Shown here: positions 7,277 to 61,100 of the stretch, piece by piece
Layout of the letters: the number at the start of each line of letters is the position of its first letter
Numbering within the stretch: position 1 is the stretch's first letter
DNA from: Candidatus Omnitrophica bacterium UBA6233
GTDB lineage: Bacteria; Omnitrophota; Gorgyraeia; Gygaellales; Profunditerraquicolaceae
NCBI GenBank assembly: GCA_002440965.1
Contig: DJWJ01000026.1
Location: 23,439-87,438, forward strand
Direction: 5' to 3'
DNA: 64,000 nucleotides
Notes under the pieces: generated by a model
What the model was told of the DNA's origin: nothing
What the model saw: only the letters and a program-made list of their open reading frames with translations
Databases searched by the model: none
Translations under genes and position numbers: made by a program

Positions 7277-7280
7277 TTTT

Positions 7281-8153: not shown

Positions 8154-8174
8154 ATTTATTACTTAAATCCGAAG

Positions 8175-8320
8175 ACCGGAGCCCAAAATTCAAAGTTCAA
8201 AGCTCAAAATTCAAAATAGATCTAAATGACAAATATCCAATGACAAAACTTTAGTTTTAGATTTTGACATTTGGTTTTGGGATTTATTTTGGATTTTGAA
8301 TTTTGTCATTTGTCATTACA
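8175..8320 (-). repeat. Leader cassette repeat, copy C (degenerate, non-genic, between the SBP and permease genes)
   Basis: On the minus strand: TGTAATGACAAATGACAAAATTCAAAATCCAAAATAAATCCCAAAACCAAATGTCAAAATCTAAAACTAAAGTTTTGTCATTGGATATTTGTCATTTAGATCTATTTTGAATTTTGAGCTTTGAACTTTGAATTTTGG. It contains a 31-codon remnant ORF MTKFKIQNKSQNQMSKSKTKVLSLDICHLDLF* that is homologous to the MTKSKIQNKS…LSFDLCH leader. Confidence 0.7.
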
Positions 8321-8322
8321 AG

Positions 8323-9631: not shown

Positions 9632-9692
9632 ATCTGTCCTCCTATAATATAGTCATTTCCGGCTATTTTCTTATCTAAAGGCGGAATATTAA

Positions 9693-9721
9693 AATTTAAC
9701 ATAAGTTACTGGAAGGGTCAA
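9693..9721 (-). promoter_or_regulatory. Candidate sigma70-type promoter (TTGACC-N17-TAAATT) upstream of the SBP/permease genes
   Basis: Read on the minus strand: TTGACC (9721..9716), 17 nt, TAAATT (9698..9693), in the 115-nt gap between the PilZ stop and the SBP start. Sequence match only. Confidence 0.25.
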
Positions 9722-9746
9722 GGCTTTTATTCAGGTTTTATTGCAA

Positions 9747-10061
9747 TTAAACGGCTCTTAAAACCCTGGACATCCCCATAAAATCCGCTCTCTCCAAGCT
9801 TACCCCGATATTATACTCGCTAGGATTGACCATCCTTGACCAGGCAACTTCTCCCCGGGTATAGAATGGCTCGCCTTTGTCCGGAACATCCAGCCATATC
9901 TCTAGCGGGGTGCGAAGCCTTAATTCCTCCTTCGCCATAAATCCTATGCCCTTAGCGCTGATGTCCCTGGTCTCTCCGGAACCCTCCACACTTGCCCTCG
10001 GATCAATGAATCTTAAGGGGAACCTAGCCTGAAACCGTTCAAAGATTCTTCGGTCATCCAT
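9747..10061 (-). CDS. PilZ-domain c-di-GMP-binding protein
   Basis: 104 aa. It has an RxxxR motif (RRIFERFQARFPLRF) and a D/NxSxxG motif (DISAKGIGF). The SD-like GAGGGGG lies ~8 nt upstream of the ATG. It begins 40 nt after the giant ORF's stop. Confidence 0.8.
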   Translation of the reverse strand: MDDRRIFERFQARFPLRFIDPRASVEGSGETRDISAKGIGFMAKEELRLRTPLEIWLDVPDKGEPFYTRGEVAWSRMVNPSEYNIGVSLERADFMGMSRVLRAV

Positions 10062-37100: not shown

Positions 37101-40100
37101 TGTATTCCAGGTTGCTAACGATTATATTCACATCTTCCTGGCCGCCGGTGATATGCTTAAGCAACTCCATGATTTCATCCTGGAACCCGAATTGCAGTTC
37201 GTAGAGCTTGACATCAAGATACTGCCCCAATTTCTTCTGGCGCGCTTTATCCATAGCGTCAAATACCGGCGCGGTCAACGCACAGAATATCTTTTCCACT
37301 ATATCCGCCTTCTTGATCCAAGGGGTTAAATACAATTCGATGCCTATCTTCGTTAAAAGAATCCTGTCTATCTCCTGCCCGCCGTTCAGGTCGCGGTCAA
37401 AGACAACGATCTGTTTGTCGTTTATAGTAACTATCGTTATTCCTTCTTTTATCCTCCCCGCATAAACCCGGTCGTCCACCTGCGCAGCCAACTTCTTTAT
37501 ATATACCTGGTTTTTAATACCCGCTGCTTTAATAAAATTCTGCAGAGAAGCCGCCTGCGCGCGCAAGCCTTCCAAGAATACAAAATCAACCTTCCGGGCC
37601 GGCGCCCCGCCGGTAATATCGATGATTTCCTGTATAACGGAGCCGCAATTAAATCTGTCCTTTACGCTCCTGAAGAAAGATAGTGTTTCCCGCAGGCTGG
37701 AATAATTGACAGATGCGCGCCTGTCAATCAACTCTACTACCTTATTACGCAGTGCCCGCAGGCGAGAATCAAGGAGGAACTCATCTTTTATATCTCTCAG
37801 TTCCTCCAGCGCGGCATCCAAATCCGCATTGCCGCTGTTAATGCTAATATCAATTATCTCTGTTAACTCTTCAAATTTGACCTTGCGGTAGTTCTCAAGG
37901 ACAACATCGCGATGCTCCTCCCGGAAAAAGACAAAATACTGCAGAATGATTTCTTTAAACCTTTCTTTATCGGTAAAATCGGAGGGATACGCGCTTATGT
38001 GCTTGAGCAGGTTGAACACCTCCGACATTGAGGTGTAATCCGGCAGTTTTTCATTCCCGGAAAAATATTCTGCCCTCAAATTACCAGCCAACTCAACGAC
38101 CTTGGAGATAAATTCTTTTTTAAGGCCCATCAGGTTTAAGTCCGGCCTGGTCAGGCGTTCCCGGCGCAGCTTGCCTTGCAAAACAGCAATCTCCTCCTCG
38201 CGGGGCAATGGCTGCGAAAAATGCGTGGCAAAGCGCTGGTCGAGTTCAGTAGAGACCGCGAATGTCCCCCTGTAACCTAACTTACGCGGGTTCCTTGTTG
38301 CGGAGACAAAGAAGCTGCCTTTATTATCGTAGCGTTTCCCGCCCCAGACGATGAAACCATAACGCATTAAGTTATTCAAAACGCTCCATACCTTCGGCGG
38401 GCAGGCGTTCATCTCCGAGAAATGCACCGGTTTATCTTGCTCCAGCGCCCGCAATACATAACCCGGCCGGCGGTAAGTCCCTACCGCGGAATCGTAACCT
38501 TTTGGCCCGATAAGCTCGTCGACTTCGATATTCTTGCTGACATCGACATTCTCCACTGTGTCGCCGTAAATCAAATAATAGATATAGTTCAATATAGTGT
38601 CTTTTCCGGTGCCCTTCTCCCCCACAAACTGCAGATTTTGTTTCAACGCAATATGCTTAAGGATATCCTCGATGACGCGCAAATTGGTATCCGTCAAGTC
38701 AATCTGTAGATGCACAGGCACCTCATTAAGGCTCTCCGGCGCATTGTCTTTGCACTGAATACGCGTTGTTTTGTATACCAGGTATTTTTTACCGGTATTG
38801 TTATCCCGTTCAATGCGCAAGCATTTGGGGCCAAGCGGAGTTTCCGCAGTTTTAGTCAACCCTCGCGGCGAAAGGATGCCTTCGATATTCTTGATAATTG
38901 TATCTTCTTCTTCGCGGTAATTGTAAAACTGCGCTACGATATCGCCGATGCGGTTTATGTCTTCGGGGAAATATCCGATATGCTTGATGATTTGCTCAAG
39001 GGCGTGTGTTCCCAAAGGAGCCCCTGCCAGCTCCCCGATATTAACTGCCTGACGCTTCCCTTTCATTTTGCCGCGATAGGCATTACGTATCTCCCAAGCC
39101 GCCTCAACCAGCTGATGAATAAGTTTCTTTTCTTCCTCGGTAATCCCTCTGCCCAACCCGTCGCGGATTTTCTTCAGCCTCCATAACAAAAGCTGCTTCT
39201 CCTCTTCTGCCGGAGGATAATCGAATTCAATCACGGTGTAGCGCCTGGTCTCCTCGGATGAATATTCCTCCACGGAATATTTAAGGCCGGGGGCATTGCA
39301 GCTTACTATTACGCAGGCATCCTCCTGCGCCTCTCTCTTGTCGCCGTTATGCAGATACAGGGTTTTGCGCTGCAATATTCCGTTGAGCTTCTTGCGGACG
39401 CCTACCTTGGCCTTATTCCATTCGTTAAGCATCAGGAAATCCCCGAACTTAAACGCCTGGCTTAATTCCGACTCCCGATACCCGGTCTTACGCTCGTTAT
39501 TACTGTCGACCTCCACGCTTTTTTCCTCGGTAAGCTCTTCTTCTTCCATCTGCTCGTAACAGAAGGTATAACGCAGGGGCTGGTTCAACAAATAGCAGGC
39601 ATAATACACATGAAGGTCTTTCGCCGTGCTGGTGTCACCGATCAGCATAACGCCGCCTTCGGACTTGCCCTTACGCAGTTGGACGGCTTTCAATATCTGG
39701 ACGGTCTTTTTGATTGTGGACGGCAGCTCCAATACCTCGATGTTTTTCGGCACGCGTGTTCCGCCTTTACCTCTTTTTATCCTGATATTTTCCGGCTCGT
39801 ATACCAAGTATTCGCCGTCCGACTCCTGCACTACCTTAAATACCGAACCCGGGGTTGCTTCATAGATTTTGGTTTGTTTAGCCCTGACATCGAAGATGCT
39901 TTCGGCAAATAAGAACATCCCCGTAAACGGCGATATGTCCGGCAACCAGCCGTTATGGGCTAAAATATATTTATTAAGGACAAATAAAAGGATAACGCAT
40001 AAATAAGGAAGGATCTTTTTTATCTGCGCCTGCAATAAGCTCCAGACAGTCTTGCCGAGTTCACTCAACTCCAGAGCTTTGCCGTAGGGCGCATAACTCT

Positions 40101-43100
40101 TTTCTATCTGGGTTACCTCATCTTTATCTGCCCCGGCGGATTTATCGTAGACTCCGAAGGGGAAGAAATAGATGTCTTTATTATTCCGATAAATATTCCC
40201 TACATCCTCCGAGGCCCCGTCGGTAAGGATAATCAATGAATTAATATCTCCTTTAACCGTCCTTTGACGTATCCTTTTGACAGCCCTGCTGATTGCCGGG
40301 ATATTTTCTGTTTCGCCGCCGTCGCTGGTAAGGATAGTTTGCAATATTGCGTATTTTTTCTTTAAATTCAGCCTGCTTTCGTCAAAGTTCTTTAATATCC
40401 GGCTATTGGAACCGAAAATCACGATTTCATGTTCGATCTTAAAATCTTTCGCCAGATTCTCCAGCACCTCGATAAAAGCCACGGCACCCCGCGCCGCTGC
40501 CTGTATTTTATTTCCCTGCATAGAACCGCTGACATCGATAATCAAGGAGAACCTTACTACAGACGGTTCCTCCTTATTCAGGCGCTGCTTGAAGATATTT
40601 TCGTCATACTCAATCTTGTGCAAGGCCCGGGCGTCCAGCCTGCCGGAACGCTGATTCCCATCCCATCCCGCGTCCTGGTAGATATCTTCAAGAAAACGCC
40701 GGAACCTGTCTTGCAATGTGGCGATAACAGAGATATTTTTATATTTGCCGTATTCACCCCTCTCTTCCTCATCCATACCGGTCATCTTTTCCCATTGTTT
40801 TTGCAGTTCCTGCGCAGAGGGATTTCTTCCGTAAGCGCTGGAGGAAACGCCGGCTATTTGCTGCTTCAATTGTTCAAGCGATTCCGGATTGGAAACGTCT
40901 TGATTCCCGTTTTGAGGTTGTTGATTACTGCCCGCGTCTTCGTCTCTCCGGTTGCCGTTTTGGCTATCAAGGCTCTTTATAATCTGCTCTGTCAATTCTT
41001 CTATCTGCCTGCTCTTATCATCAACCTGCTCCGTAGATTCCTGTATTTCGGCGGTCTTCCCTTTCATAGCATCGGCCTTTTTCTGCTCCGCGTGCCTAGC
41101 TAGAGCGTCAGAGAGTTCTTTCATCTTCTCGACGGTTTCATCGATTCTTGCCGCTTTATCGTTGATATCGTCTGCTTTTGCTTCAGGCTCTCCTCCTTGG
41201 CCTTGGAATCTCTTGTCCAGCTTATGCGTCTCTTCCCGCAGACGCTTTGCTTCTTCGGAAAGTTTGCGGATCGCCCCGTCCAAATCCTGTAATTTATCTT
41301 TGTCGATACCATTAGCTCCTATATCTTGCTTAAAGCCTTCATTTGCCTTTTTTACTTCCTTATTCTTATGCTTTACCTGGCACAGTTCCCCCAGAACGCT
41401 GTTAGCGGCTTTATGGATATCATCCTGCTGCCGGCTAGCGTCTTCTTTCGGGCCAACATCTGTTGGCGCCCCTGGCTGCCCCGAAAGATTCCCCTTGGAC
41501 CCTTTCGCCGCTTCAGACAAAGCTTTCTTTAACTCTTCTTCAACCTGCCTGTTTAATTCTTCTCTCTGCTCTTCGGAAAGCCGTTCAAGAGCCTTCTTGA
41601 GGTCCTCTTCCAGGCCGGGACGATCCTTTACCTGGGATATGTCCGTGCCCTGCCGGTTATTCTTAAACGCCTCTTTGCCCAACTGCGGCTGTTTACCGGT
41701 CATCATTTCTTCAAAGAGCTTCTGGTCTCTCTGATTCTTCCGCATCTTTTCAGCCAAATGTTTTACTTCCGGCCAGATCTTTTCTTTAACAATGGCATAG
41801 AATTCCTGGCGCTTAAGCTTATGCATAAACGGAAGGTGGTCTCCTGAACTTTGAATTAATTCCCGGATGGCCTCATTCTCAATCCGGGGATCTTTTTCGC
41901 CTATAGTAAAGAAGTAAATCAACCCGAAAAGATACTGCAAGAATTCTTCTCTTTTACCCATCAACGCTTTTTCTCTCGCTATACTATGTATCTTCTGTTT
42001 CTTCTCGTATAACTCTCTTATCCACTGCGCTGTTTCCGGGTAATCGGATATGCCCAGGCTTATCGCCCGCAATGTATCGAATATTGTAAAGAGCGTAACA
42101 AAAGCCGGGTCATCTTTTAATGCCGATTCGATTATATCCGGGCGAGCAAACCTCCAGGCAAAGGCCTCGCGCATAATTAACCCCTTGCCTGCAACCTTCC
42201 CGTAATCAATGATTTCGTGCGGGATATAATACAATCTGTGGCGCAATGGATCATAACTGATGCTATCCATGCCTAATTCATCGGGTTTTCCGGTATCGCG
42301 CGCCTCAAGCTTAAGAACAGGGTCTTCCAAGTTCATCCGCGCCAACGCAAGAAGCTCATCCATAACCTCGTTCAGGAATTTCCAGTCGCGCTTGGTCAAT
42401 CTGCGCCAGAGCTGCGGATACCATTCCGGCGGAAGATTCTTCTTTCCGTAATCAACAATCTTCTTGAGATAATCCCTCTCTTTCAGATAATATCCCGCCA
42501 GAATAGCTCCGGCAAATCTCTCATCGAACTTAATCGCCCTCTGGCCTTTTGAAAAAGTTTCACGGCTGTTAACTAAATCAAGCAGGTCCTGCGGGACGGG
42601 AACCGGCTTACGTCCTTTGCTCAATTGAGAACCAATCGTTATCCATTTATCATACTGCTGCCGCAATTCTTCCAATAAAACATCATTGGCTTCCCGATAC
42701 ATAATTGCTGTACTTACTGCTTGAGTAATAATCTCGTTTTCCGCGCTAAATGGCAGGCGGTCTTCTAAAGCCAGGTAATGAACAAGTTCATGCAGAAAAG
42801 CGGCTTTGAAGAAAACAGGATTATTTTTCTCCTGTAAAACGGTTATATTGACATTCTTATCCATAAACGGATTTACCTGAACAAAACCACCCAAACCAAA
42901 TTCCCGCGCCCGCATAAACATCTCAAGCTGTTCCAGTAACTGGTTAAGAACCGGAGGCGAGAATCGGTAGTCATAAATGCTTGCCGGAAGGGTATTCAAT
43001 AGGGTGGCAGGATAAGTAATTAAAGCTACTTTGCGCTGCAGGTCCTGGTCGTCGATATCCAGCAGGCCAAAGAACATCGTCGTCAGCTCACGGACGCTCT

Positions 43101-46100
43101 TTGCCTCTTCCTGCGTAAAATTCTCTTCCCTTACCCGCAATATCTCATCGCTATCGAAAATGCTCAGCGAAGAGTCTTTGGTTTTCAAGGCGGTTACGGC
43201 GGCAACGATTTTTTCGTCGGCATAGGCGGCCCGGATTTCTTCGCTAACGCGCTGCGCCCCGGCTAAAGACCTGCGGTAAAGCTCGTCATTACCCTGCGCC
43301 AATGCTTTAATAATATCATTTCTTGCGCCGTAATAATCAATGACTGCCTGCGGCAAGGTATCCTGTTTAAACGCCCCCGCCACAAGATTGTCGGCCGAAC
43401 GCTCCAATTCATCATTCACTATCCGGTATTCAAGCTCTTTAGCCTTATCCTGCGTTTCGCCGCTTAACTTGGTAAGCTCGTAGAAAAGAAGTGTGTAAAA
43501 TTTGACGGGATTTTCTTCATTACTAAGAACGGTAAAAAATTCGCTGTCAATATATACCCAGTTTTTGTTATCGTATCTGCCCCAATGCGCCAGCGCGTAT
43601 GCGTCGGGGGCGCGGATAAACAAGCCGGGTAAAGCCTGTCTTTCTTCGATGACAACGACGTTTGTTTTCTTAAATAGCTCGGCTAACTGCTCTAAATGAT
43701 GCTCCCGGCCGAACGCATCGATACCTGCAAAGAGCTGCTGATATTTTCTCCGCTGATCCTTAATCCGGCCCTTTTCCTCCTGCCCCCATACTAGATACAC
43801 TTTCCCCTCATCGATCTTCTTCCTTATATTCGCGTCAATTTCTTCATCAGTAATATTCCCGCGCCCGTAAGCAGGCGAGGTAGCGCTAGCCTGATTATTC
43901 TCACGTAGGAATTTTACAAATTCCGGCGCTCGACGCTCGATTTCGCGGACCAGTTCAATCACCATCTCCTCCGGATTTTCGTCTTTATAATTAACCGCCA
44001 GGACAAAATCCCGAAGTTTCATAATACGGAAGCTGCCATCCATACCGACCACGGCTGATTCATACCAATTATCCCCCACTACTTTACCCAACCATATCGC
44101 ATACAAAGGATAATTTTTCTGCAGAATGTCGAGAAGGCGGCTATCCGGTTTAATTTTTTTAGTCACACGCACTATGCCGGCAGGAACGATTTTATACACT
44201 AAATCGTTACCTTTGATAGACGCGGCAAAAATTCTATCGGATGTTTCCGCAATCTTCCGGGCCAACCGCGTATCGACGCAGCGCCGTATAAATGTCTGCA
44301 AAGGGCACAGGGCCGAAACACCTAAAGTTTCGATGTAAGACCAATTTTCTTTAGCAATATAACAATGAACCTCATCTTCAAAATTTATATCTTTTCCCGT
44401 ACGCTTGTTATGAACCAATGTGCCCAGCAGTAATTTAGAAGCGGCTTTACGTAAATTTCGATTCTTATCGTATAAGGCGTTTTTAAGAACGGATAAACCT
44501 GCTTCGCTGCTAATTGAACTTGAAGCATTCAAAAGATCCAGGTTTGCGATTGCGACTTTGCGGCCTTCTTCTTGCGGGCCGCTTAAATACCTTATACAAA
44601 TTTCAATTGTTTGCTTTCTCCTGGCCCCTAATTTATCCAAAGAATTGAGCGCACAGCTAAGATAAGGCGCATCTTTTAAAAACTTGAATAAAAGCTCCCA
44701 GTCGCCATCTTCTAAAGCTCCGATTATCCTATTGCACGCAGAATATTCCTTTCGGTTCTTTAGGATTTTCAATAAACGCGCTAATACCCTTGGATTCATA
44801 GAAGAAAAATGACTATAATCCTGGATTTTTTCTTTTCCTATAAATTCCTTCGAGGCGCGAAAAGCCAAAAGTATCGGCAACAGAAAATACCAAGCTAAGA
44901 AGCTAATCAACAATAAGCTGGCTACTATAGAAAATACTATTAACAAAAGAGGAAGCTGGAGTTTAATAAAGTTACCTGCCGACATTAAGAAAAACCAAGA
45001 TATCTTGCCAATGAAACCAAGAAGAAAGAACAAACCAATAACGTAAAAGAGAAACGCAAAGAATGTTTCCCAGAGTGGGGAACGACCATCGTTGGCGAAA
45101 CCTATTATAAAAGAAGCTATAGATATGCTTAAAACCACCTTGATTCCAAAAATTACAGCTGTAGCCACAGCGATTGAGCCTTCTCCAGCCAGAGCCAAGG
45201 CGGGAATGGCAAAAAGGAAAATACTGGCAAACAAGGCGCTAAGAATAACTACACCCAAAGCGCTGCCTCTCTTCATATTTAGACTACTATTTATTAACGA
45301 TCCCATCCCGACAGCAGGAACATTTTTTGCAGGGATACTATTCTTTCCGTTTATTTCGAGTGCTTGCCTATTATTAAAAAGCGTCTTTTCACTTAGTTTC
45401 TGTATCAATTTTTCCACTAAATTATCACGCCAAATGTCTATCGAATGTCCGAAGGTTAGATGAAAATCTTCTTTAGGATAAAAATAGCCGATAATGGTTG
45501 TACCGAATTTCTTTTTGTTGGAGGTAGAATATCTAATTACAGGCATTCGCATATCGCCGAATATATCAGTATTACCAGGAACGATAACTGCCGTTTCTCC
45601 CGGATGTTCGATTATAGAAAGGCTTGCGAAATCACAAACAGCCGCTGATAAGCCTTGACCGTATTTTCCACCAATGCCAAACGTCTTATTCCACTGTATT
45701 GCTTCAGAGATAGACACAACCCTGTTTTTCATATCTCTAAACCCATCCCCATTATCTGCCACTAATACTCTAGATTGCCCAATAACAACTATAGCCAAAC
45801 CTTCAGGGACATGTTGCATGACATTCTCTAAAGCAATTCCTAAAAACTCCGCTTTACCGCTATGTTCTTCTAACTCAAACATTCTTGCGGCGTTATGACA
45901 AAGAGAGCGCCAATTCTCCCTTTTCTTCTGCATCTTATAATCAATGTATTTTCTTTCCGTAACGATGGCTGAAGGAGAGGCAAAGATCGCGGCATTTGTT
46001 ACTATGCCTCCAAATTCTTCAAAATTCTTTATAGAATCAATAGCCGATTTACGTAAATCATCTATGCCTCTTGATTCTTTTGTAGACTTACGATCCAGAA

Positions 46101-49100
46101 CCATCGTTATTGAAACAGTAGCAGAATATGGACGATACTCCTTCTTCAGTTTTATCCCGAATTGTTTGGCTGCGTGGAGAAACTTAGTCAATTCTGCGGG
46201 GTTATTCCGGAAATAGGCGTAATCTAAGGCAAGGGCTTTTGGTTCTTTAAGGCCCTTGATAAGATGAGATCCTACATCATGGAAGATGATAACGTTGATA
46301 AGGGCCTGGAAGGACTGTAATTCGGGGTTATCTGTGTCAAAAGGAGGCGCCCTTGCTGCCAGGCCTGAGTCGAATTCTACCTTGTTGTTGATCTTTTCCG
46401 CAAGGGAGAGGTTGAATCTATTGCTTAACACAATAACTTCTTCTGGCTTTAGGGTAATCCCAAGAACCCTGAAGCTCTCCTTAATGTAATTCAAGAGATT
46501 ATTGATCTGGCTTTCTGTTATAGCCTTACGCTCTTTTTGACTAAGAGGAAGAGATGCGGGGAAATTATCCAGGCTTGAAAGCAGAAAGCTAGCTACGACA
46601 AGAACAATAACAGGAAGAAATGTATATTTAAAAACTACTTCCAACTTGTCAGGATTAAGGTTTAGTATCATTATCATGGGAATAACAAGAATACCAATAA
46701 TGGGCCCTAAAAATAATAAAACAGCAAAACCGGTATTTTCTCTGGAGAAAACTCCATCCCATTGTTTTAATATAGAAAAATATATGTAAGAACCCGCAAA
46801 ATATAGTATCAACACCATAAGACAAATAGCTATCTCATGCATTTGTATAAATCGCAATGCCGCAACAATACTAGGAGCAAAGAATAGGCTAGTGGTTAAA
46901 ATCAGGGAAACCACTAGGCAGGCATCAATAACACTATTCGTCACCTCATCGCTTTGCTCTATCGTCCTACGCGCTGCCTCTAAGAACCCGGCATCGCGGC
47001 TCCTTTTTAACAATACAACCGTAGCCTTAAAAATGGCTAATATAGAAAACGCGGACATAATACCTATACTGATAAAAAATGCATTCGTCAGAGTAATGGA
47101 GAAATTGGCTGCTCCTGAAGTAATCATTTGTCCTGCGGCCAAGGCGGGAATGGCAAAAAGGTAAATACTGGCAAACAAGACGCTAAGAATAACTACACCC
47201 AAAGCGCTGCCTCTCTGCGAGGAGAAATCAATTTTCTTATTGTTGTATCTGGAAAATAGAAGGTTATAGAGAATTTCAGCCTGTTTATTTCTGGAGAGCT
47301 TGAAGAAGTAGGTATTAAGATAAACGGTCCAGCCTTCTCCTTCAATCCAGTTGTAGCGGCCGACCTTATTAGCGGTAAATGCGGGGATAGAGGTAATTAT
47401 TATCTTTCCCGGAATAGGCGGAGAACGCAGGCCAAACTGTTTGAACCTATCCGATAGCTGCTTTAAGGTTGTGAAGAAAAGACTGTTCTTTGCTTCATAG
47501 CTTTCTGTGGAGAGCTCAAAACCGGTCAGGCTTAAGGTAACGTGGCGCCATTTCAGTTTATCTTCCCGGCTAAGCTGCTGCTGGAATTCTTTAGGCACAT
47601 CCGGCAGGCAAGAATCCAAAGCATTATCCTGCCCTGTGTAATCCTCCCTGGTAGATGGCACATCTAGAACATCCCGAAGGACATTTAATGTTCTTTTGGA
47701 GGGGATAGCGGCAAAAGAAAAAAGCAGGGACGGCAACCAATAGGTAGGATCCATCGGAAACGAACTCTTAGCTATACATACTTTATTCTCATTGTTTTTA
47801 TTTACCCGCCGCGAAATAGCAATTAGCTCTTTTAAGAGCATCGACTCTTCCCGGACATACCCTCTAAGTTTTTCCAGCAGTTCTTTTGCCGGAATCGCAA
47901 TTATTATTTCTCGAGCAGTAAGTTTCGTAGCTGTCTCTTCGCTGCGGAGGCCTCCTAAATGCCGGAATTCTTCCCTGAGGCCATAGATAAGAAGCGACCT
48001 TTGAGTCTCATCGTCAAGTGCTTTATCAAATAAAGCGGAGCTTATGGCTATGACTTCGAAATTTTTGAAGCTATGAGTTTCAATGAAATATGTGGTAAGG
48101 TCAAAGAGAGCGATGTAGACGGGTTTGCCAGAAAAAACAAAGTTATCTACATACTCATCCTCTACATCCAATGCCTTCTTTAGCAAACTGCCCATAAGAC
48201 CGCTGCTAAATACCGGGTCTAGAATAAATTGCCTGGAGACATTTGTGGCGGTATCGGCGATATTTAATCTGATCCAATTGCCTGCTTGTTGTGCTGCTTG
48301 CGGAATCTCATAAGCAGCCTTACTGTCTTGGGTGGAAGGTTGGCCTTGAGGCGCTTTATAAGGAGAGCTGGCGGACAACTCAAGCTGAAGGGCGTTGGCT
48401 GACGCAAGATTTTGCCGGGAGGCAAAAAACTTAAGAGTATTCGACCGGAAATATACCTCTATCTCCTTAATTAGGCCTGCTCTTATCTGTTCGGCATAAG
48501 GCGCGGGTATCGTATCCGAATATATTCTGACCGGATTTCCCTCTTTATCATCGAAACTTATTTTCCAGGGAGACACTCCTTCTTCTCCGAAGGTGCCCTT
48601 CCCGGACGAATTATGGTAGATGACATTGGTTTTGCTTAAAAATTTGAAACTGTACCGGCCGTGTTTATCGAATAACCAACCGGCTAACGACGGAGCAAAC
48701 TTTAGGTTCAATTCATTCCGCTCATTCAGGAAGAATGGCCTTTTGCCCAGATTCATTATCAACCATATCTGTAAAAATTCTACGGTTGAGCCGGAAAGGC
48801 GAGCCACAAAACCGTTCCCCTGCAAGCTCTCGTCGGGATAGGCGCTGCTTGCCAGAAACGAGGAATTTTCCAAAATGCTGCGGCCGTATCTTTCAGGGCT
48901 CTGGAATGGAATGAGCGCGGATTTAAAATCCTCATAGAACTGCTCCGCAAGCCCGCTTTTTAAAGTTTCCAAAAGATACTTGTATTCCATATGCAGCCAG
49001 ATAGATTCGTTTTCTAACCATCCCGAGGGGAATGTCCGGCATCTGCCGATTTCTTCAGGCATCCCTTCAAGGGAATCGCACACTTTATACATCTTAAGCT

Positions 49101-52100
49101 TTCTATCATAAAGCCCGCTATTTCTTACTGCTCCATATAAAGCCTGCGCTTTATCCGCGCTTTCGGTTGTCCTCAAAGCATGCACAAAAGACTCCAGGAA
49201 TAAAGGAAGCGCCTTCTGGGAGAATTCCAAAGGCTTTATGCGCTGGCCATCAAGGATTTCGTATTTAGTAACTTCATTGATAAAGTAAGCCGGGTAGGTA
49301 TTTTGCTGTTTGTCAAAAGCCTTATCGATACCAAAGCCTACTTTCTTTAAAAAATTATCCAGGATTAAGATTAATTCGTTTACAGATAGTTCTTTTTCTG
49401 CGCCGCTAAAACCAAATTTTGTTTTCAGGCGGTAGTCCTCTTTATACGAATACGCCTTATCCCAATAGGCATAATCTTTTTCAGCCGCCGCGCTCTCAAA
49501 ATATTCCCTGGTTAAATCGTTAAGCTTGGCTAAAAAGTTATAGACCTCTTCTGTTACAGGCAAAGTTTCTATAGCTGCTTGTTCAAGGGAATCTTTGATA
49601 AAAATGAGCAGCCTCTTTAGCTCGAAGGTTTCACAGAGAGAAGAACCGAAAAGCGCAGGCAGCCCGTTTAAAGCATCATACCAATTAGGCTTACCAGCCT
49701 CCATCTCGATTCCTATTCCAAAAGGATCGAGGCTAGCCATTTTATTGACCGCAAGGCAGAGTAATTTATTTATAAGAGTAGTCCGGTAAATTTGGCCTTT
49801 GCCATAATCCGTTCTTACGAGATTAGGCGATACCGCTCTCCCCTGAATCATTGCTTTTTTGTCGCTATCCGCGCAAATTGAATTGAGCTGCCTTGGCTGG
49901 TTGTTCAACAGGGTATATTTCTCCGCTCTGGGTTGAATTACCTCAATATTGTCGAAATAAGTAAATTCCTTCTTCTCGAAGATTATGTTTTTGCACTGTT
50001 CCGGATATACCCCTAAGAAACTCTCCAGAAGGTCAAGATTATAAGTCCAGTGGTCGGTCCAAAAACCTTCGCCATGTTCGGCTTCCTGGATTTTCGCCGC
50101 ACAAGAAAGAATAAATGAGATAAATTTATCATAGGAGGATTTAAGTTTAATCCCGTTATTCTCGATGAACATAGCCAATTCCCCGGGGGAGAAAGGCTTG
50201 GCGAAAAATTTCTGCAGTGGAGAGATATCGGTTGCTTCCGTATAATCCATCAACACCGTCTCTATATCTACTCCCTCTTGTATCTTAAAGCTGGCTCCCT
50301 TTACTACCAGAGGATTAAAACCGTCTGCCTGCAGGAGATTGAAGAAACAAACCAGGTTTTCCTCTTTTACCTCGGGATTAAACCAGACATCGAGCCTGCG
50401 GTTCTGGTTTACGTCGCGGTAGTTGCCGTTACCTTGCGAGAAATAAGACGCCTGCGTCACGAAAGAATTATAATCTCTCTCCAAATCGCCGTGTTTGCGC
50501 GAATAAAGATAGAAAACCTGCTTTGCCTTGCCGGAATCCGGGCGGAACACAACCGGATAGCCGCCGCGCATGATGTTATCCAAGTAGGTCTGCCCTGCGT
50601 AAAGATCAAATTCCCTGGAACTGCTTTTTGTAGCAACATCGTCCTTGAGCTGCGCGATAACCTTTGCGTTCTCCCTCTTTTTCTGTTCAATATAACCGGG
50701 GGCGATAATCCTGGAGATAGAAGAATTAAGCATTTTAAGGTCGCGCATATTGCCGATTACTGTATAAAGCGTCTTCTCTTCCCCTGCGGCCAGCTCGAGA
50801 TTAAAAGGAGAAAAGGCGCACGGGGTCCTGCCAATAGTTACCTGATTGGCCGGATACCGGAAATCTTTTTCCTTTGAGAAACAAACCGGCGTCGAGAAAG
50901 CGGTGTCCTGTCCGAATACCTGCTGAGGATCGACAACCGGCTTTATAATCCTCGGCCCTTCTTTGGTATGAATAAAACTTAAGTAGAAATTCCCTTCTTC
51001 TATATGAATCACCTCGGGTTTATCCGCAATTTCTACACCAAGCTTAAAGAACGGGACGCCGTTTTCAAGATTCTTAACCGTAAACCAGGCTTCGGCAGTC
51101 CGGGACACATGTTTAAGCAGCCAATCATTAATGTATGCAGGAGCGATCTGCGGCAGGCCGTCCAGCAACTGCATCTTTACCGGCTTCTTGCCCGTATTTT
51201 TTAGGGAAACGCTCCTGATTAAACCGGCGAAGGTGTCGTTGGGAACAGTGGCGTAATCTACGGTTATCCCGATGCCGGCAGACGGATTGCGTTCGGCTAT
51301 CGTCAGGCCGTGCGAGCTAATCCGCATATCTTCAACCGGCCCATTCTGGAACGGCTCATAGAAGGCAGTTCCCTTATCACTTGTTACCTTTATAAAAGTG
51401 CGGAAGCCGTGGGAAGCGGCCATCTGCCAGGCCTTGTTTGCCGGCCAAAATTCCAATATCGCATGATCCTTATCCTTTGTGCCGAAGCTGGCTATTCCCT
51501 GGCCGCGGTTAACATAAAACACCCACATCGGTATGCCGTATTTACCGGCGATACCGGGGAAAAAACTGGCAAACGGCTTGGCATAATTATAATTTTCGAT
51601 TACAAATTCATCCTTATTGTTAAGGGAATATTTAGGGGTTTTGGAAGAAGCATCTTCGCTGGAAGCGTTTTCTTTAGGAGCAAAAATAATATTCTTGATG
51701 GCTGAATTAATCTGGCTGGTGATTTCAGGGGATTCATCCTGATGGAATGCTCTCTGCAGGTCATTGTCTTCGTGGATAAGCAAGCTGGTTAAGGCCTTCA
51801 TTGCCGGAGGGCCTTGCTTGTAAAAACCATCCAGGATAACCGAAGAATGATTAATGATCCTGTTTACTCTTTCGTAGGAACCGTAGTTAGTCAAAAGGAC
51901 AAAGTTCTTTCCGGTAATCCTGCCGGTTTGCGCCAGGCCTGTTTGGCCGGGTTTAACCAGAATTAACCGGTGAGTTGTATTAAGCAGGCTTTGACGGGTA
52001 TTTTCATCCGGAATCGCAGCAATAGCCTGCTTGAGCATTTCAGCAAGAGGCCTGTAGGCAACAGGCAGCTCTTCAATCTTAACTTTGGGGCCTAAGATAT

Positions 52101-55100
52101 TGATAGACCTGCCTTCTTTTATGGCTTGCGCTACGTTATCTTCTGCTTCCGCCTGCAGGTTGACGCGCACTTTAAAAGAGAGCTCTTTTTGAGAGTAGAT
52201 CCAGGAGAGATCATTCCGGGAAGGGGGCGTTATTTGAATACGCGCTCTTTCCAGCATCTTTATAATCTCTTCTTTGCCTAAGGGACCCTTCAAATTCCTT
52301 TCTTTATTTTGTATCAATTTTTCCTGAATCAAAACACGCACAGCCTGAGCTTCATCCGATGAAACCTGGATACCAATATCTTCGAAGAACTTCCTTATTG
52401 AGCTCGTTCCGCTATTGTAACCAATAACGATCCTGCACTTGCCTCCTGCCTTTTCCGGCGGAAATGGCTCATAGAGTTCCGGATGTCCTTTTAAGATAGC
52501 ATCAGCATGTATTCCTGATTCGTGGGTAGAAATATAATCCCCGGTTATAGGAGCATTGGGACGCAGAGGAATTCCGAATCTTTCCGCAACTAGCTTAGAG
52601 AGATGGGTGAGTCCTTCCGTATTAATACCTGTCTTTATTGCTAATTTATCTTCGAGCGCCATAACTACTTCCTGCAAAGAAGCATTACCAGCTCGCTCAC
52701 CAAGATTATTTACCGTAACATCAACGAAAGAGGCGCCTGCTCTGACTGCTGCCAAAGCATTAGCAGTAGCTAAGCCATAATCATTGTGCCCGTGGAAACC
52801 AATCGGAATATTGGTATTTTGGATGATATTCGACAATCTTTTTTCGAGTTCCCAGGGCGCAAACTGGCCTTTGGTGTCTGCCAATAACACCCTATCCGCG
52901 CCAGCTTCACTGACTGCCTTGATGAATTCTATTATAAAATTATCGTCGCTATTAGTAAAATCTTCGCAAGCAACATCAACATAAAAACCTTTTTTCTTGG
53001 CGTATCGGACCACTTGAACCATGTTACTCATTACCCACTCTCTGGTTTTAGCAAGTTTATATTGAATATGGCTATCGGACGTAGCGACAAAAATCCTGAT
53101 ATTTTTAAGGCCGCATTTCTCTGTCGCATCCACATCTTCAACCATCTCCCTGCTCAAGCCAAATAATTTAGCCTTTAACCCCAAAGATAAAATGGAAGAG
53201 ATAATATCTTGTTCTATCTGTCCAGTCGCAGGAAACCCGACTTCCATTTCCGGCACGCCTATTTCGTCAATGGCGCGCGCGATAGCTAAACGCTCTTCTT
53301 TAGTTAATACCACACCCGGCGTTTGTTTACCGTCGCGCAACGTTGTATCTAATATTTTTACTCTTTCGGATGAAAGCGGTTTCTCGGGAGTCAAAATTAA
53401 AGATTTTTGAGCTACTGCTAAATCATCTTTAAAGTCATTTAACTGGCGGGGTGATAGGTTGAATATTATTTTATTTTCCGCCTCGTTGAATCCTATTATG
53501 AGACCGAATAAACTATTCTTATCGTGATTAAAATTTTTCTCTAGCATATCTATGCTTAATTTTTCTAGCTCAGGCAGGCTAGATAATTTTTTATTTAGAA
53601 AGTCAAAATAAAGCCATTTTGTTTTTTCGTCATAGACATAATCAACCCAATTATAAGTTTGGCCCGATAAGTCTTTGCTTATCTTGGCAATGAAAGCGCT
53701 TAATACTAAAAGCCTAATAAAGTTGGCATAATTCCCTTCTATTTTTTGCTTGTTTTCTTTTTCTTCTCCGCTCAAAAATCTAAATAGAGATTTTGCATAA
53801 TTAAATACCTTCACGGAAGGAATGTAATCCTCTATAAGCTGCCGCGTTTCGTCGGGTAAACTGTTATATTTGGATATTACTTTCTCGTATTTATCTTTGT
53901 ATCTTCTAAGATCGGTTAGTCTTATTTCCTGCCTTTCTGTTCTCGTCGGCTCATCAGATAAACCTGCTATCTTGTTTTCCAGATATCCAGCGCCTTTATA
54001 CTCAGCTGCCAACCCCTTCAATCTATACAGAAGCAGAGATTCACTTAATTCAGACGGTTTCCTTACCATCTTTCGCACGTCTAGGTAATACTGCGCGCAA
54101 TAATCATCGATAAATTCACCACCTCTAACCCCCCTCATGTCGGCTAATGTAAAAGGAATCAGCCAATCAAGATTCTTTTCTTGTCTATTAAAATCACCGG
54201 AATATTTTAAAAGTTTAGAAAACAGATACCCGGCTGTTCTTTCTCCAGTATACATAGTCCCTATATCAACATGAGAATCAATAAAATACTGCGCCTCTGA
54301 AATCCTCTCTTCGGAAATACTGCTTATATATTTCTTTAGAACCTCTTTAATGAGCCGAGCACCTATGGCGTGATGTTTTGGTTTGGAAACGATTGTTCCT
54401 ATATCGTGCAACAAAGTGACTAAAAAGTAAAATTCCCTGTCTTCTTTCGTCTTTATTAAATTTCTAAGCAAGATATGATGTTTACAAAATACGGTTTCGC
54501 TTATCTCCTCCGGGCTTCTGGCGTTTTGGTTAAAAGCAACATGATTATTTTCTAGTATATTTATAAAATGTTTGAAAACTTCCAAAGAGTGATCTTTCAT
54601 ACCGGCGCTTTCCAGCAAGCCGAAGAAAGGAAGCGCCCTATCTAATACCCCATCTTTTACGCTTTTATCAAAGTCTACTAATATATTGTCAGAATTGATA
54701 AATATATTTTTTATCTTTTCATAGGCTTTCGTATCGCTATCCTCAATTAGGCATTTTATTTTTTCTTCGGCCCACCACTCACCATTGAAATCTTCTGTGA
54801 TCTTGCGAAATTCATCTATAGTCCTCTTGGCTACTTCATACCTTTCATCCGAACTATCAATATCATCTCTCCTCAAGATTAACCATCTAGCGACATCCCA
54901 AAGAAAAGCGCCTGCCCCTAAAACATAAGGAATTGCCTCTAATTCTTCCATTGTAAGCTTGTGGTTGGAAAATGCTTGGTATCCTCTAAGCAAAGCAATA
55001 AAGCTGCTTCTTACATATTTCCTTTCCATCTTTAAAGCTGTCCCTAAAAGCGCGTTCTTAAATTCTTCAATACGCGCCTGTCCTTGGCGGCTGCGTTCCC

Positions 55101-58100
55101 AATCAAACAATACCATAACATCATCCCTATCATCCATCCATTTGACATTGCCTGTTTTCATATCCCCATGGATAACAGCTTGAGGCAGTTTTTTATATTT
55201 TTCTAAAGATAAATTATTTTTCAAAGAAGCAAACTGACTAAAAATAAAATCGGCATTATCCAAGAAGAGTTGTTCTGACCTTGAAAAATTTCCGCCTTTC
55301 AATATTAACCGTTGTTTTAAATTTAAGAAATCTTCTTCGGCAGTAGCAATATCAATTGCTAATAATTCCCGTTTCTCTCCCTTAGGTATAAAACCGGACA
55401 GAACATTATGGATTGAAGCCATCATTTTACCTAATGAGAAAAACTGTTCCGGACGCATTTGTGCCCAGGTTATTTCTCTTCCATCCGGAGTATACTCTTC
55501 TAAGAACCAATACCAGTCCTTTATTTTTAGCAAATAGCCTACATGCCTTGTTTGCTGTATTCGAGCAACAGGAAGACCTTGTGCATGCAAATATAATTGC
55601 ACTGAAACAATAAAATCGGCTTTTAAAGAATCGTTCGTTGCGTACTTTAAAACAAATTTTCCTTTCGGCGAATAAATTAGCAAAGGCTTTCTTAAAGAAG
55701 TGCCGCCGATTAAATCCTCATATTGAACTTGATTCAGTGAATTTACCCCTAAATCGTAATTCTGTATGATTGCATTGGCTTTTTCCTGCCCGGTTACGAC
55801 TACTTTTCTCAAATAATCTTTAATCCTCATTGAAGATAATCGCCAAAGAGGAGTATTATCAGCATCTGTTTGCGAAGACGAAGGAAAACTATATTCCTGG
55901 ACAAGCTGCGCTGCTTTAATGGCTGCGCCTCTGGCGGCATTGGCATCTTTAACCAAAGTCACTTCTATTATCTCTTGTATGTTTAAATCTTTGCTGTATT
56001 GGTTGACATACTTCTGCAACAATCTCTGACGTATCTTGCCTGTCCCGGCTGCGGTTGTTCCGCCGCCAAAGGCAAATTTTGTCTTACCAGTTAACTTATA
56101 GAGGAATATCACATGCTGGGCTTCGCGCTGCTCGACAATATCCCATACTTCTAAGGATAACTTCACTAGCTCGCTGTCGCTATCCAGTTTCAAGGAGGTA
56201 TCCAGAGGATTTATGCCGCTTGCGGCTAAGCCGATATGCTCTACTTCTATTTTACTTATCCCAAGTTGTTTTAATTTTTCAGTTAACCCTATCTGATTGG
56301 CTACTGCCATGATCCCGCGGATGCTGCCTGCCCAATCCTCATAAGAGCCTAGCGGTGAATTCTCTGCCCTTGATTCTATACCATCTTTTACGTTGAATAT
56401 CTGATGGCCGCCTTCATTGGCCCCAGCCACTACTTCACCGTTTTCTATCTGCTGCACGCCTATTCCTGAGCCGGTAATTAATATAACCGCATCTTTAAAG
56501 CCTGCCAGCTGGGCTATACTTAAGCCCCATCCGGTCATGTCATTGCCGTAACCAAGCAAGGCATCCCCTAAAATATTGCGCAGATCCTCAATAAATGTGT
56601 TTGCCTCGGACAGGCCTGTTCCCATATCTTTTCCAAAGCCCCGGCTTAATTCGCCCAGGCTTGCCATACGGTCATGGGCGTAATCCGGATTTCCCGGAAG
56701 ATTAATAAAGAGCGCGCTAACCTTTCCATACTTGGCTTCTACCGCTGTTTTTAGTTCCTGGACAAAATTTACCAGCCGATTGCTGAATTCCTTACCGCTA
56801 TCGCCAACTTCTAGTTTTTCATATTTAAAGGCGTAACGGTAGCGCAGCGATTTATCCTGTTTCCTGAGTTCTTTCTCATTTGCTGCCTCAGGCGACAATT
56901 CATCAGTTACATCCTTACCGTCTACCAATACGCATGATTTTATGCCCTGTCCGCCTACATCAAGGCCTATGGTAACCATTGTCTTAGGCAGGGTTATTTT
57001 TCTGTTTTTATAACACTGCTCTATTAATTCTTTTAACCCGATTGGGCTTTTTGCCTTAAAATCTTCCGGCTTATATATTATCTCTACTCTATTTCCGGCA
57101 TTGGCTTTGCTTAATAATGGCGCGCCTGTTTCCTTAAAGTATTTATCTAATGATTTGATTGCTGCTTCTTCGATGTCGCCTCTGCAGATTGATGAATCGT
57201 TTTCGTAGGCCTCCACATAGATATGCTCTGTCGGGCCATTACCTAAAGCCAACCCTTGGGCGTATAATTTGGCGATGTAGCTGCGGTATATTGTTTCTGC
57301 CTGGCCCTTATTTAGCTTGGCTGGATCAGGAATTCTAATTTCTACTGCCCGGCCGTTATCCGCGGTTAATCTCACGGTTATTACTTTGGCAGACTGCTTA
57401 ACCACAGACTGGATATTCTTTTCGATGTTGATATATTCTGTGGAAGTCCCATTTATTTTTGGAAGCGCTTTCCTGGAAGGTAAAATAAAAGATTTTTGAG
57501 CTGCTGCAGAGCTTTTCCTATTGTCAAATGTGTCTGCATCGTCGGTTTTTTGTTTTTCAACATTCAGTACAGATACTTTCTGCAAAAGTTCTTTGGCGGC
57601 AGAGCGGATCTCAGGAGTGGCGCCGGGATTACTTAAAACGGCATCCATCTTATCGGTAACGAACCTTATTTCATTACCCATCACCAAAGGAACAGCATAG
57701 ATAATCAAGAGGGCTTGCTCTTCAAATGTTAAAGGCGATGAATAGTCTAAGAGGTTTAAAGATCTGGCGGACGCCTGATCACGGCTTTCAAAACCGGCCA
57801 TTAGTTCTATAGCCTGAAACTTTCTTTCCAAAACACCGAATGTCCCTAAAAGGCCTTTAACGGTATCTTTATCCTTAAATGCAATCAGGGCGTCTAAGGC
57901 TCCGCGGAAATCCTCGGGGGAATCCAGCCGGCAATATAGTTCATAAACCACTTTTTCGCGAAGCCAGCTTGCCAGAGACCCCTGCGAATGCTTGAGCCAC
58001 TTTAACCACTTAGGCCAGATAGATTCTGGCGTAGAACAGATGGTTTCATTAATCACCTTAGTAGCTATCTTGTCTTCCAGCCAGCGCGATGCATCGTTCC

Positions 58101-61100
58101 AACACAAAAATACCAGTGTCAGAGGAATTGCGGCACTTAAAAATAACCCAAACGGGGTCATATGAGAAGAACTATGGGGTATATATGAGGTTGCGGCCAA
58201 GGCGGGGGCGGCGAAGAAAACAGCGCCGGCAATCGCCATTAAGGCTAAAAGCAAAACCTGGGTGGAGCCTTTCTGATTATCAAAACCTATATCATCGCTT
58301 TTTTGTTTTTCAACATTCAGGACAGATACTTTCTGTAAAAGTTCTTTGGCGGCGGAGCGGATCTTAAGGGTAGCGTAGGGATTCCTTAAGACAGCATCCA
58401 TCTCATCGGCAACAAATTTTCTGTTATTCCCCATCACCAGGGGCACAGTTTCAAGGATAAGAAGCGCCTGCTCTTCAAAGGTCAAAGGCGCTATGTCATC
58501 CAAAAGCCCGAGGAATTGACCGGGGAGCCGGTCGTGGCTTCTAAAACTACCCATCACACTAACCGCTTGAAGTTTCTTTTCCAGCATACCGAAGGGGCCT
58601 AAAAGGCCCTTGACGGTATCTTTGTCTTTCAATATAACGATGGCGTTTAACGCTCCGCGGAAATCCCTGAAAGAATTCAGCCGGCAATATAACTCATAAA
58701 CCACTTTTTCGCGAATCCAGTTTGCCAGAGGGCCCTGTGAATGCTTGAGCCATTTCAACCGCTTAGGCCAGATAGATTCTGGCGCGGAATACCCGACAAT
58801 CACCTTAGCGGTTATCTTATCTTTCAGCCAGCGCGATACATCGCTCCAGCATAAAGAAACCACTATCAGAGGAATAATAACTCTTAAAAATAACCCAAAC
58901 GGCGTAATATGAGAAGAGGTGTAGGGTATGGATGAGGTTGCGGCAAAGGCGGAGGTGGTAAGGAAAATAAATCCTAAGAAAATACCTAGCACCTTGAGTT
59001 TATTCTGCAACTCAGAAATATTTTTTCTGGCTCTCTGCTGGGCTTCTGCATTTGCCTCCATTCTAACCTCTCTGAGATGGCGAGCCTTATCAAGGGTAAT
59101 TTCTGCATTGCATTGGACCTCCAAGCGCTTTCCATAGCTCTCTCCTGTCAAGCCTATCTCGAGCTGTTGGTTGGAATTACGCATTTCTATCTCTAAAACA
59201 GTCTTCGTATAATCTGCGATTATCTTATATGCCTCTGCTCCTAAATTGCATAATTCCTCTTTTGCGCGCTCCAGCTTGAATTCCAATGCCTGTTTCTTGA
59301 GTTGCTCTATATGCTCCGGTTTAGCGCTGGGGTCATCGGCATAGCTTTCATGCAAAGCTACATGCTCTTTGGCAAAACTAATAAGCAATTCTTCTTCATC
59401 GAGCAGGTTAAAGAGCCTGGCTATTCTTTCTCTTTCAGAGGGATTTTGCCAATCCCGGCTGTTGGTTAGAGGTAATTTACGAATCTCTTCTGAGGAGATA
59501 TCGTATTGCTCTCTAAGGAAAATAAGCTCGTCTCTATTTACTTTTTCACCGGCACGGCGGGCTTTCCTTTTGCCGCTAACAATAAGGTAGTTGAGTAAAA
59601 CTGCGGAATAGAGCGTTTCGTCTACCATCTCTGCCATATAGGCTAAATCAGGATTTTTCTCTTGGCATTCCAAATAAATATCATGCATAAACCCGGGTGT
59701 GATGTTGTGGAAATCACCTTCATCAAATTTATTGAACGTCTGTTTTAAAGAATTGAAGGAAGCGCAGGAAACTTCCAGCTTGCGCTTATCTCCGGGTGTA
59801 AGTTTTATATCCAGCTTTTTAAATAATTTTAATATAGTGCTCGTCTTAGTTTCTGTGCTGCTGGAAAGGCCAGACACAACCTCTTTGGCAATAAACATGA
59901 TATCTTTTTGCGCCTGGAGAACGATTATCTCTTTATTACGAAGATTAGGATATTTCCGGAGTAAGCTTGCGTAAGCAAGGATGATTTGCAGCGCTCTTTC
60001 AATCCTTTCCTTGCCAAATTTATATCCGGGTGCGCTAAGGATAGTCTTTACTTTTTTTGTATCTAAGTTACCCTTGGCATCACTTATCTTAGCAGCATAA
60101 TGGATTTTTTTAGTTGCTTTGTTGTAATAGACTATCCTTTCCCCGCAATAGTCTTCCAGCGCTTTAACTACTTGAGCCGGCCCTTTGAATAGCCTGAACC
60201 CTTTACAGCTAAAACTAAACAGTTCCTCGGAAAGCGGTTTCTTGAAGAGCAAAAATAAAATTCCCACGACAGTTAAAGTTATTATTCCAAAGAGGGATTG
60301 CACTGGGATAGAGTTTATTGGCCCTGCGGCAAATGCGGAGGTGGCGAAGAAAAAGATAGCTGCTAATAAGGTACCGGCAATCGCCATTAAGGCTATAAAC
60401 AAAACCTGAGCGGAGCCTTTTTGATTATCCGGCCGGGGAGCAGGGATGTGGCGAAATAAGGAAAATTTACCGGCCTTCTCTGGCATAAAGGCCAAGAATT
60501 CTCTTTCTACTCCCAGGCGTGAACGTACGATACCCTTGAAGCCTGCTGCTTCCCGGGCCAAGCGGATAAATAAATCAATTCCATCTACCTCGTCTACGCC
60601 TTTGCCGAAGTTCTCGCCCACGCTTGAGCCTAAAACAATTAAATTAGTAAAACCTTCCTTAGGATAGGCTTCTTTGAAGGCTCGCATAGCCATACCTAAA
60701 TCTCTGCCGGCTTCGCTGATAAAATCCAATGCCAGCCTATCTCCATTTTGGGCCTTTTCTTCAAGATGAGCATCCTCCAAAGGTAAAATTTCGCCGGCCC
60801 CGGAGAATTCTTGCCATCTCTTGGCTAACCCCGGCCCCGAGAGATAATCCTCCAGGCTCCTTTCGTCCGGAGTCAATTCTCCCGGATCTTTCTGGCCCAA
60901 CCAACTGCCATCCGGCTTGGGTTGATATCTCCATTCTTTTGTCTTTAGATTATAGATAAGATGATGCCCTAACTCGCCCAAGCCCCAGCTTACTTTATCG
61001 GACTTATAACAAGGCTTGCCGTCCTTTAGAATACCTGCTCCTACGCCTGTGCCTAAAATAAGGAATGTGCCGCTAACCAGAATTTGTTTATTTGGATTAT

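Follow-up and report, generated by a model that had tools for sequence, protein, structure and literature searches.

How does a giant bacterial gene come to carry the same membrane-anchored module twice in succession, and is the repetition a trace of recent growth? The question arises in a 64,000-nucleotide (nt) stretch of Candidatus Omnitrophica bacterium UBA6233 (GenBank assembly GCA_002440965.1, contig DJWJ01000026.1, positions 23,439 to 87,438; hereafter the window), where an open reading frame (ORF) of nearly 18,000 codons on the minus strand holds two adjacent copies, A and B, of such a module. An initial annotation of this DNA took them for a recent tandem duplication of a unit opened by one transmembrane (TM) helix. 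The evidence below points instead to an old event: A and B are likely to have arisen by in-frame duplication of a hairpin-anchored cytoplasmic cassette, through unequal recombination between connector sequences, and to have been kept by selection. The ORF and the two copies are placed as follows; amino acid (aa) numbers, here as in the initial annotation, count from the ATG at 63921 and are hence offset from the true N-terminus.

10102..63921, minus strand: giant ORF, 17,939 codons from the ATG at 63921
58264..58998, minus strand: copy A, aa 1642-1886, with helix 1, short loop, helix 2, a ~190-aa domain predicted to be all-helical and a tail ending FDNQKGS
57508..58251, minus strand: copy B, aa 1891-2138, laid out as copy A, with a tail ending FDNRKSS

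Divergence of the two copies

The existence of two adjacent, in-frame copies on the minus strand is borne out by direct repeats, self-BLASTP and local alignment, and the borders first proposed (58294-59001 and 57541-58266) lie close to those determined here. The direct repeats form three collinear blocks with spacings of 753, 753 and 747 nt, all multiples of 3, and 79-81% ungapped DNA identity, which becomes 74% over the codon-aligned copies; self-BLASTP of the chunked protein matches A to B with E = 1e-70 to 1e-92. Protein identity amounts to 66.5% (163 of 245 aligned positions) rather than the ~75% given initially, a level attained only in the best 40-residue stretches (75-82%), and the long identical DNA runs that had been claimed reach 23 nt at most. 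Tandem Repeats Finder reported no repeat, with a maximum period of 500 nt against the ~750-nt period of A and B.

One related locus each came from a genome scan and a metagenome scan, and outside the window the module was detected in these two loci only. The first, L001, found in the scan of GTDB genomes, is a 5.3-kb contig of 'Candidatus Omnitrophota bacterium isolate STD1_202' whose 91-92% DNA identity to the window points to an Omnitrophota host; it starts inside the B orthologue. The second, L005, consists of 20.7 kb of a 127.8-kb metagenome contig from the Joint Genome Institute (JGI), read as a single ORF. Copy number in relatives, a check that the initial annotation had called for, is A plus B in L005, as separate orthologues, and B in L001, with the following protein identities.

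A (window) versus A (L005): 85.5%
B (window) versus B (L005): 90.8%
B (window) versus B (L001): 90.8%
A versus B, every combination of genomes: 65-66%

Between A and B the synonymous divergence (dS) is ~0.73-0.76 and the nonsynonymous divergence (dN) ~0.20-0.22, for a dN/dS of ~0.27-0.30 (Nei-Gojobori); within L005, too, A versus B gives a dS of ~0.73 and a dN/dS of ~0.27, while orthologous blocks differ between assemblies by only 0.05-0.27. Informative nucleotide sites comprise 128 with an orthologous pattern, 2 concerted and 2 crossed. Because the copies have distinct orthologues, their mutual dS is far above that of the orthologues and orthologous sites outnumber concerted ones by 128 to 2, the duplication predates the split of the sampled lineages, and both copies appear to have been under purifying selection since before the three sampled lineages diverged. 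The term 'recent' can therefore not be retained for copies that are this far from identical, with both paralogues present in L005 and B in L001. Ongoing gene conversion between A and B was also considered, and is rejected for the core of the module on the same site counts; an exchange with B does seem to have taken place in the last ~20 codons of the window's copy A, the C-terminal tails of A and B being 91% identical in the window versus 63% in L005.

The adjacency of the copies, their common frame and their similar length are what a recent duplication would give, as would an assembly error that turned a single repeat into a pair. Yet A and B diverge at 21-26% of their nucleotides and at 33% of their residues, their dS is ~0.73, distinct orthologues were recovered in two independent assemblies, and assemblers do not create diverged copies. 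Repeat expansion during assembly is excluded by the DNA divergence together with the independent recovery, and we regard a recent or artefactual origin as a whole as extremely improbable.

A predicted membrane hairpin in each copy

A hydropathy scan finds two hydrophobic helices in each copy, where the initial annotation had one.

58939..58998, minus strand: copy A first helix, aa 1642-1661, LKVLGIFLGFIFLTTSAFAA; signal-peptide-like, ends A-F-A before ATSS
58837..58911, minus strand: copy A second helix, aa 1671-1695, ends in LCWSDVSRWLKDK on the predicted cytoplasmic side
aa 1885-1911, minus strand: copy B first helix, from the hydropathy scan
58096..58158, minus strand: copy B second helix, aa 1922-1942, from the hydropathy scan

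The outer flanks of the hairpins carry K/R (…NKLK- and …DNQKGS-; -SRWLKDK) and the loop of 9-14 residues (ATSSIPYTSSH) is uncharged. Because K/R stand on both flanks and none in the loop, the positive-inside rule predicts that the two helices of each copy form an in-in hairpin with the flanking domains in the cytoplasm, a placement that agrees with the ATP- and acetyl-CoA-dependent neighbours ROK, APH and HMGL. Such hairpins would keep both flanks on the same, cytoplasmic side and so do not yield the alternating topology once suggested. A Cys/Trp-containing part is present as described (LCW.D.SRW), but it forms the predicted cytoplasmic end of the second helix, and the helix taken as the common start of both copies ('...LMAIAGAVFFAAPALAA') is found in copy B alone; copy A opens with another one (VLGIFLGFIFLTTSAFAA).

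The duplicated and apparently lineage-restricted cassette would accordingly be read as a short periplasmic loop (ATS.IP..SSH), a membrane helix, the ~190-aa all-helical cytoplasmic domain and a C-terminal tail (VEKQK.DD..FDNxKxS), which continues into the signal-peptide-like helix that follows; this helix and the one after it would make up the hairpin that pins the chain to the membrane and leaves the flanking domains cytoplasmic.

Connectors at the cassette borders

Two kinds of connector appear to recur at cassette borders, the hairpin helices and a short linker with the motif KSxIL.

58189..58281, minus strand: A/B junction connector, aa 1881-1911, DNQKGS followed by the copy B first helix TQVLLLALMAIAGAVFFAAPALAA
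60232..60429, minus strand: connector hairpin after the ROK kinase module, aa 1165-1230, initially described as the third copy
57454..57504, minus strand: KSxIL linker directly after copy B, aa 2140-2156, AAAQKSFILPSRKALP; left breakpoint of a ~1,350-aa segment absent from L001
53392..53442, minus strand: KSxIL linker just before the HMGL-like enzyme, aa 3494-3510, AVAQKSLILTPEKPLSS; right breakpoint of the L001 gap
62806..62856, minus strand: KSxIL linker after the N-terminal P-loop kinase-like module, aa 356-372, AAPKSLILSSGKALSKK; similarity to L005 begins here

Connector DNA is more alike within a genome than the cassettes are. In the window, the junction DNA at 58226-58281 is 91% identical over 56 nt to 60374-60429 (direct-repeat family D4), which lies in the connector after the ROK kinase. 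That connector comprises PDNQKGS, a first helix ending SAFAA, a loop and a second helix ending FKKPLS, and its helix at aa 1165-1199 is 63% identical over 35 aa to the A/B family helix (chunked BLASTP). The third copy announced upstream thus stands as a related helix and falls as a partial module copy: the 414 aa that follow, tried as a diverged copy of the module, were rejected as unrelated (hhalign probability 0.1%). In L005, positions 4796-4915 and 6239-6358, spaced 1,443 nt apart, are a perfect in-frame direct repeat of 120 nt, which encodes the connector RPSLQQKSLNSTLLKAIAFFAFSAGSFLFFFATPALAA on either side of a GNAT-containing cassette; its source is either a recombination or conversion event of very recent date, or an assembler join between strains.

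Further repeats of this type occur along the chain. A second pair of connector helices (RGSALGVVILS.LFASI.LFAIPALA), at 47131-47223 (aa 5567-5597) and 45187-45279 (aa 6215-6245) of the window, shares 84% aa identity, and each helix of the pair stands at the start of a different multi-helix membrane block; the window and L005 cease to be similar just past the connector at aa 5567-5597. The motif P.VTSLLLRKE.SL is found twice, at 36955-36996 (aa 8976-8989) and 35980-36021 (aa 9301-9314), the latter directly 5' of a signal-peptide-like helix (…SFSPAFAFA) that opens a seven-helix block.

A mosaic of cassettes among close relatives

The two window segments that are missing from one or the other relative are the following.

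52214..57537, minus strand: ~1,775-aa segment with APH/HD and HMGL-like cassettes, absent in frame from L005
53420..57459, minus strand: ~1,350-aa cassette with an APH-like kinase and a weak HD match, absent in frame from L001

L005 and the window protein are 84-85% identical over aa 359-1233, after which L005 has an unrelated GNAT-containing cassette instead of window aa 1234-1645 ahead of copy A. Between A and B it carries a 935-aa insert that starts and ends in connector helices, and beyond copy B it joins in frame to window aa 3904-5610 (96% identity), skipping aa 2129-3903. L001 runs from copy B in frame to window aa 3502, skipping aa ~2154-3501, and the sequence at its junction is a hybrid between AAAQKSFILPSRKALP and AVAQKSLILTPEKPLSS, the short direct repeats on either side of this segment in the window, which is the classic signature of direct-repeat recombination. 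Copy A itself is unevenly similar between the window and L005, its 3' ~300 nt being 100% identical and its 5' third only 73-88%, and the mosaic therefore reaches a fine scale. As judged from these alignments, the giant gene appears to be a cassette mosaic among close relatives, and the proposal that it changes size by helix-bounded units finds agreement in cassette insertions and deletions between close relatives that end at TM hairpins.

Two more distant Omnitrophota loci, L006 and L007 (~58% identity), have a gene that begins at their homologue of an enzyme cassette lying further downstream in the giant ORF (aa 4092-5010), with no A/B module upstream, and so add nothing on copy number. The breakpoint at aa 3904 was considered as the N-terminus of the stand-alone homologue of this cassette and rejected, since that enzyme aligns from aa 4092.

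These arrangements suggest a route to A and B: the pair could have arisen by unequal homologous recombination between similar connector sequences, and recombination from connector to connector would also explain the gain and loss of whole cassettes relative to the related loci. A different course of events is that A and B were placed separately by connector-mediated recombination, or were once separated as in L005 and became adjacent through a later deletion. It draws on the L005 arrangement, in which the A and B orthologues flank a 935-aa cassette bounded by connector helices, on the A/B junction helix, which is closer to the distant connector at aa 1165 (91% of nt) than to anything in A or B, and on the tails of A and B, whose closer agreement in the window than in L005 suggests that the junction was remodelled after the split. 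With two informative arrangements and no outgroup, however, it is just as parsimonious that a tandem pair received an insertion in the L005 lineage, and the window keeps no trace of the 935-aa cassette; we consider separate placement or secondary adjacency rather unlikely, and retain tandem duplication at connectors as the probable origin.

Weighing the proposed origin

For eight of the ten breakpoints a hairpin or KSxIL linker lies no more than 10 aa away, and these features cover 7.6% of the compared region (P ~4e-8). Several points nonetheless weigh against the origin proposed here. The KSxIL linkers were partly recognised from the breakpoints, which makes this statistic somewhat circular, and the hairpins alone, which were defined independently, take in 5 of 10 breakpoints in ~6% of the sequence. 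The evidence for the mosaic comes from three loci, all of them metagenome assemblies, and chimeric joins at shared connector repeats, especially the 120-nt repeat of L005, are a possible source of it. A and B are not adjacent in L005, so that the tandem arrangement of the window may be secondary. The topology is based on the hydropathy scan and the positive-inside rule. Finally, the ~190-aa domain has no Pfam match at E <= 5 and no significant match among PDB sequences (best E = 0.8), the module has none in a library of 5.8 billion proteins, and its profile none among 1.84 billion cluster representatives. Both protein libraries failed to return the giant protein of the window and seem to be without giant proteins, and in a control search with another part of the gene none of the matches listed exceeded ~1,045 aa or was a close relative, so the lack of homologues holds only among proteins of ordinary length. 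The eight helices predicted for the domain come from two AlphaFold models that were built from a two-sequence alignment and are of low confidence (predicted local distance difference test, pLDDT, 48.7 and 51.4).

A Foldseek search of the PDB with the second of these models gave a best E of 1.2 and carries no weight. A HEAT-like nature, suggested by the stretch 'IRSAAKELLQKV', was rejected on comparison with the HEAT region of the gene itself (hhalign probability 0.1%). Our working guess is that the domain, rather than being an enzyme, acts on the membrane surface as a helical scaffold or adaptor.

Extent and content of the giant gene

The frame of the giant ORF has no stop across 63922-64000 and is open to the window edge, its start lying beyond the window. 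The JGI gene call for the giant gene, on contig 3300001592 Draft_10000140, is 18,423 aa long, 484 aa longer than the windowed ORF; the first 19.7 kb of the window, to which the comparison was limited, are 100% identical to that contig.

The Pfam content consists of many unrelated families, none of which dominates by copy number: ROK, APH, HMGL-like/homocitrate-synthase-like, VWA, AAA_5, NHL, GGDEF, ABC_tran/MalK (an ABC ATPase with the MalK OB domain), patatin, HEAT, radical SAM and sigma-70 regions 2 to 4, together with the P-loop kinase-like N-terminal region and two weaker matches, DHH (weak, below the Pfam cut-off) and alpha-amylase (marginal, just below it). Closest to copies A and B are ROK (aa 802-1102), APH (aa 2740-2947) and HMGL-like (aa 3520-3778). 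A Kyte-Doolittle scan yields 46-57 hydrophobic segments scattered along the chain. One cassette on which Pfam is silent, aa 4092-5010 (48892-51648), is 55% identical to a stand-alone 939-aa Omnitrophica protein annotated as cellobiose phosphorylase, which aligns from residue 6 to its end; this end-to-end match indicates that cassettes are whole enzymes. The homologue of aa 4092-5010 in L006 and L007 (~58% identical) opens a gene beside ordinary housekeeping genes. The best matches to an internal cassette are mostly proteins from Omnitrophota/Omnitrophica metagenome-assembled genomes, which again points indirectly to an Omnitrophota host.

Two complete sigma-70 modules (regions 2, 3 and 4), ~50% identical to each other, together with a third, partial copy of the segment that precedes them, are encoded on the minus strand within 14083-17553 (aa ~15457-16613) and 19450-19917 (aa ~14669-14824); a TM hairpin at aa 15981-16031 separates the two full modules. 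Transcription factors built into a giant protein that is tethered to the membrane would be difficult to account for without their release.

On the 3' side of the giant gene and on the same strand (1574-10061) follow genes for a 104-aa PilZ-domain protein, for the binding protein and two permeases of a sugar-type ABC importer, for a GH2 glycosidase and for other products.

Could the connectors be internal signal peptides?

The connectors may be more than recombination junctions. Their helices could be working internal signal peptides that signal peptidase I cuts after AxA, which would make the giant product a polyprotein and release modules A and B each as an N-out, single-pass protein starting ATSSIP...; we think this unlikely, at a level somewhat below that of a separate placement of the copies. 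The first helices of 12 connectors from the window and L005 were inspected, and every one has the layout of a signal peptide, with a polar or basic n-region, a hydrophobic core of 16-22 residues, a P/S/T helix breaker and small residues at -3/-1 in a small-x-small site, by inspection mostly (P/S)A(L/F)A|A. Of the hairpin-initial helices in the window protein 6 of 10 end in AxA, versus 2 of 36 other hydrophobic segments (Fisher P = 5e-4), the four A and B copies all retain the A.AATS site even as the upstream hydrophobic core drops to 40-60% nt identity, and it is precisely at this site that conservation of the cassette sets in. The connectors are, however, homologous to one another, so that inheritance, without independent selection, may account for the AxA they share; several hydrophobic cores have the length needed for uncleaved anchors, the hairpin loops are short (9-14 aa), and all connectors are internal (aa 1165 to 9343) and not at the N-terminus of the precursor as in Sec-type signal peptides.

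Precedents for such processing include the hairpin insertion and cleavage of M13 procoat, the flavivirus polyproteins, which are cut at internal signal sequences, and the FbcH cytochrome b/c1 precursor of Bradyrhizobium. The likeness to M13 procoat extends to two hydrophobic segments with a short loop free of charges between them, to basic flanks on the cytoplasmic side and to an AxA that ends the first segment; the predicted hairpin here differs in being internal, between large cytoplasmic domains, and in recurring many times per chain. None of the papers searched links Omnitrophota with polyproteins. The cleavage points of giant proteins are stated to be unknown (West-Roberts et al. 2023, 10.1101/2023.11.21.568195), a state of knowledge with which the idea is compatible.

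That the connector hairpins do both jobs, as in-frame junctions for DNA recombination and as procoat-like signal peptides cut by signal peptidase I, is in our estimate quite improbable. If it were true, the ~18,000-aa product would be diced into many separately anchored cytoplasmic enzymes and factors, the embedded sigma-70 modules included, and the sites would be the first concrete cleavage sites for Omnitrophota giant proteins.

Known systems and biological meaning

Whole modules that are gained, lost or duplicated in frame at short conserved junctions recall linker recombination in modular polyketide synthases and nonribosomal peptide synthetases, and exon shuffling. The modules here differ from those of the synthases in being unrelated enzymes and orphan domains that form no assembly line, and the junctions in being membrane hairpins and a KSxIL linker.

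Within the phylum, the host gene matches the multi-enzyme metabolic cluster class of Omnitrophota giant genes described by Nielsen & Lui 2026 (10.64898/2026.06.07.730766; see also 10.1101/2023.11.21.568195), with which it shares a length of >10,000 aa, many unrelated Pfam families (ROK, radical SAM, HEAT and NHL among them), about one TM helix per few hundred residues, diverged internal repeats and an adjoining carbohydrate import system. For that class, domain repeats are reported to be the norm and not to stem from recent tandem expansion (10.64898/2026.06.07.730766). The present gene differs in that the duplicated unit is without a Pfam family, so that a repeat census based on Pfam would miss the A/B duplication. 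With the Archaeovorin type of West-Roberts et al. 2023 the gene has in common a giant Omnitrophota ORF, many TM helices and carbohydrate-related content; SecA_DEAD, C39/S8 peptidase, dockerin and TSP3, which belong to that type, were not detected here (Pfam E <= 0.01 over aa 1-17,939, the N-terminal 484 aa lying outside the window). A word search of Nielsen & Lui 2026 and West-Roberts et al. 2023 found no mention of intragenic recombination, linkers, polyproteins or signal peptidase, and hence no report in either paper of cassette presence/absence between relatives of ~92-97% DNA identity or of breakpoints at connectors.

By itself, then, the duplication adds a further diverged internal repeat to a class of genes in which these have already been reported as the norm. 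What makes it useful is that it serves as a traceable marker: by means of copies A and B the giant gene is seen to differ by whole cassettes between near-identical lineages, with borders at reused connectors. The AxA|ATS-type sites in these connectors are candidate processing sites, and whether giant proteins are processed is the main question about them. Exchange of cassettes through connectors would give a concrete mechanism for the growth and shrinkage of giant genes, a question left open by West-Roberts et al. (10.1101/2023.11.21.568195).

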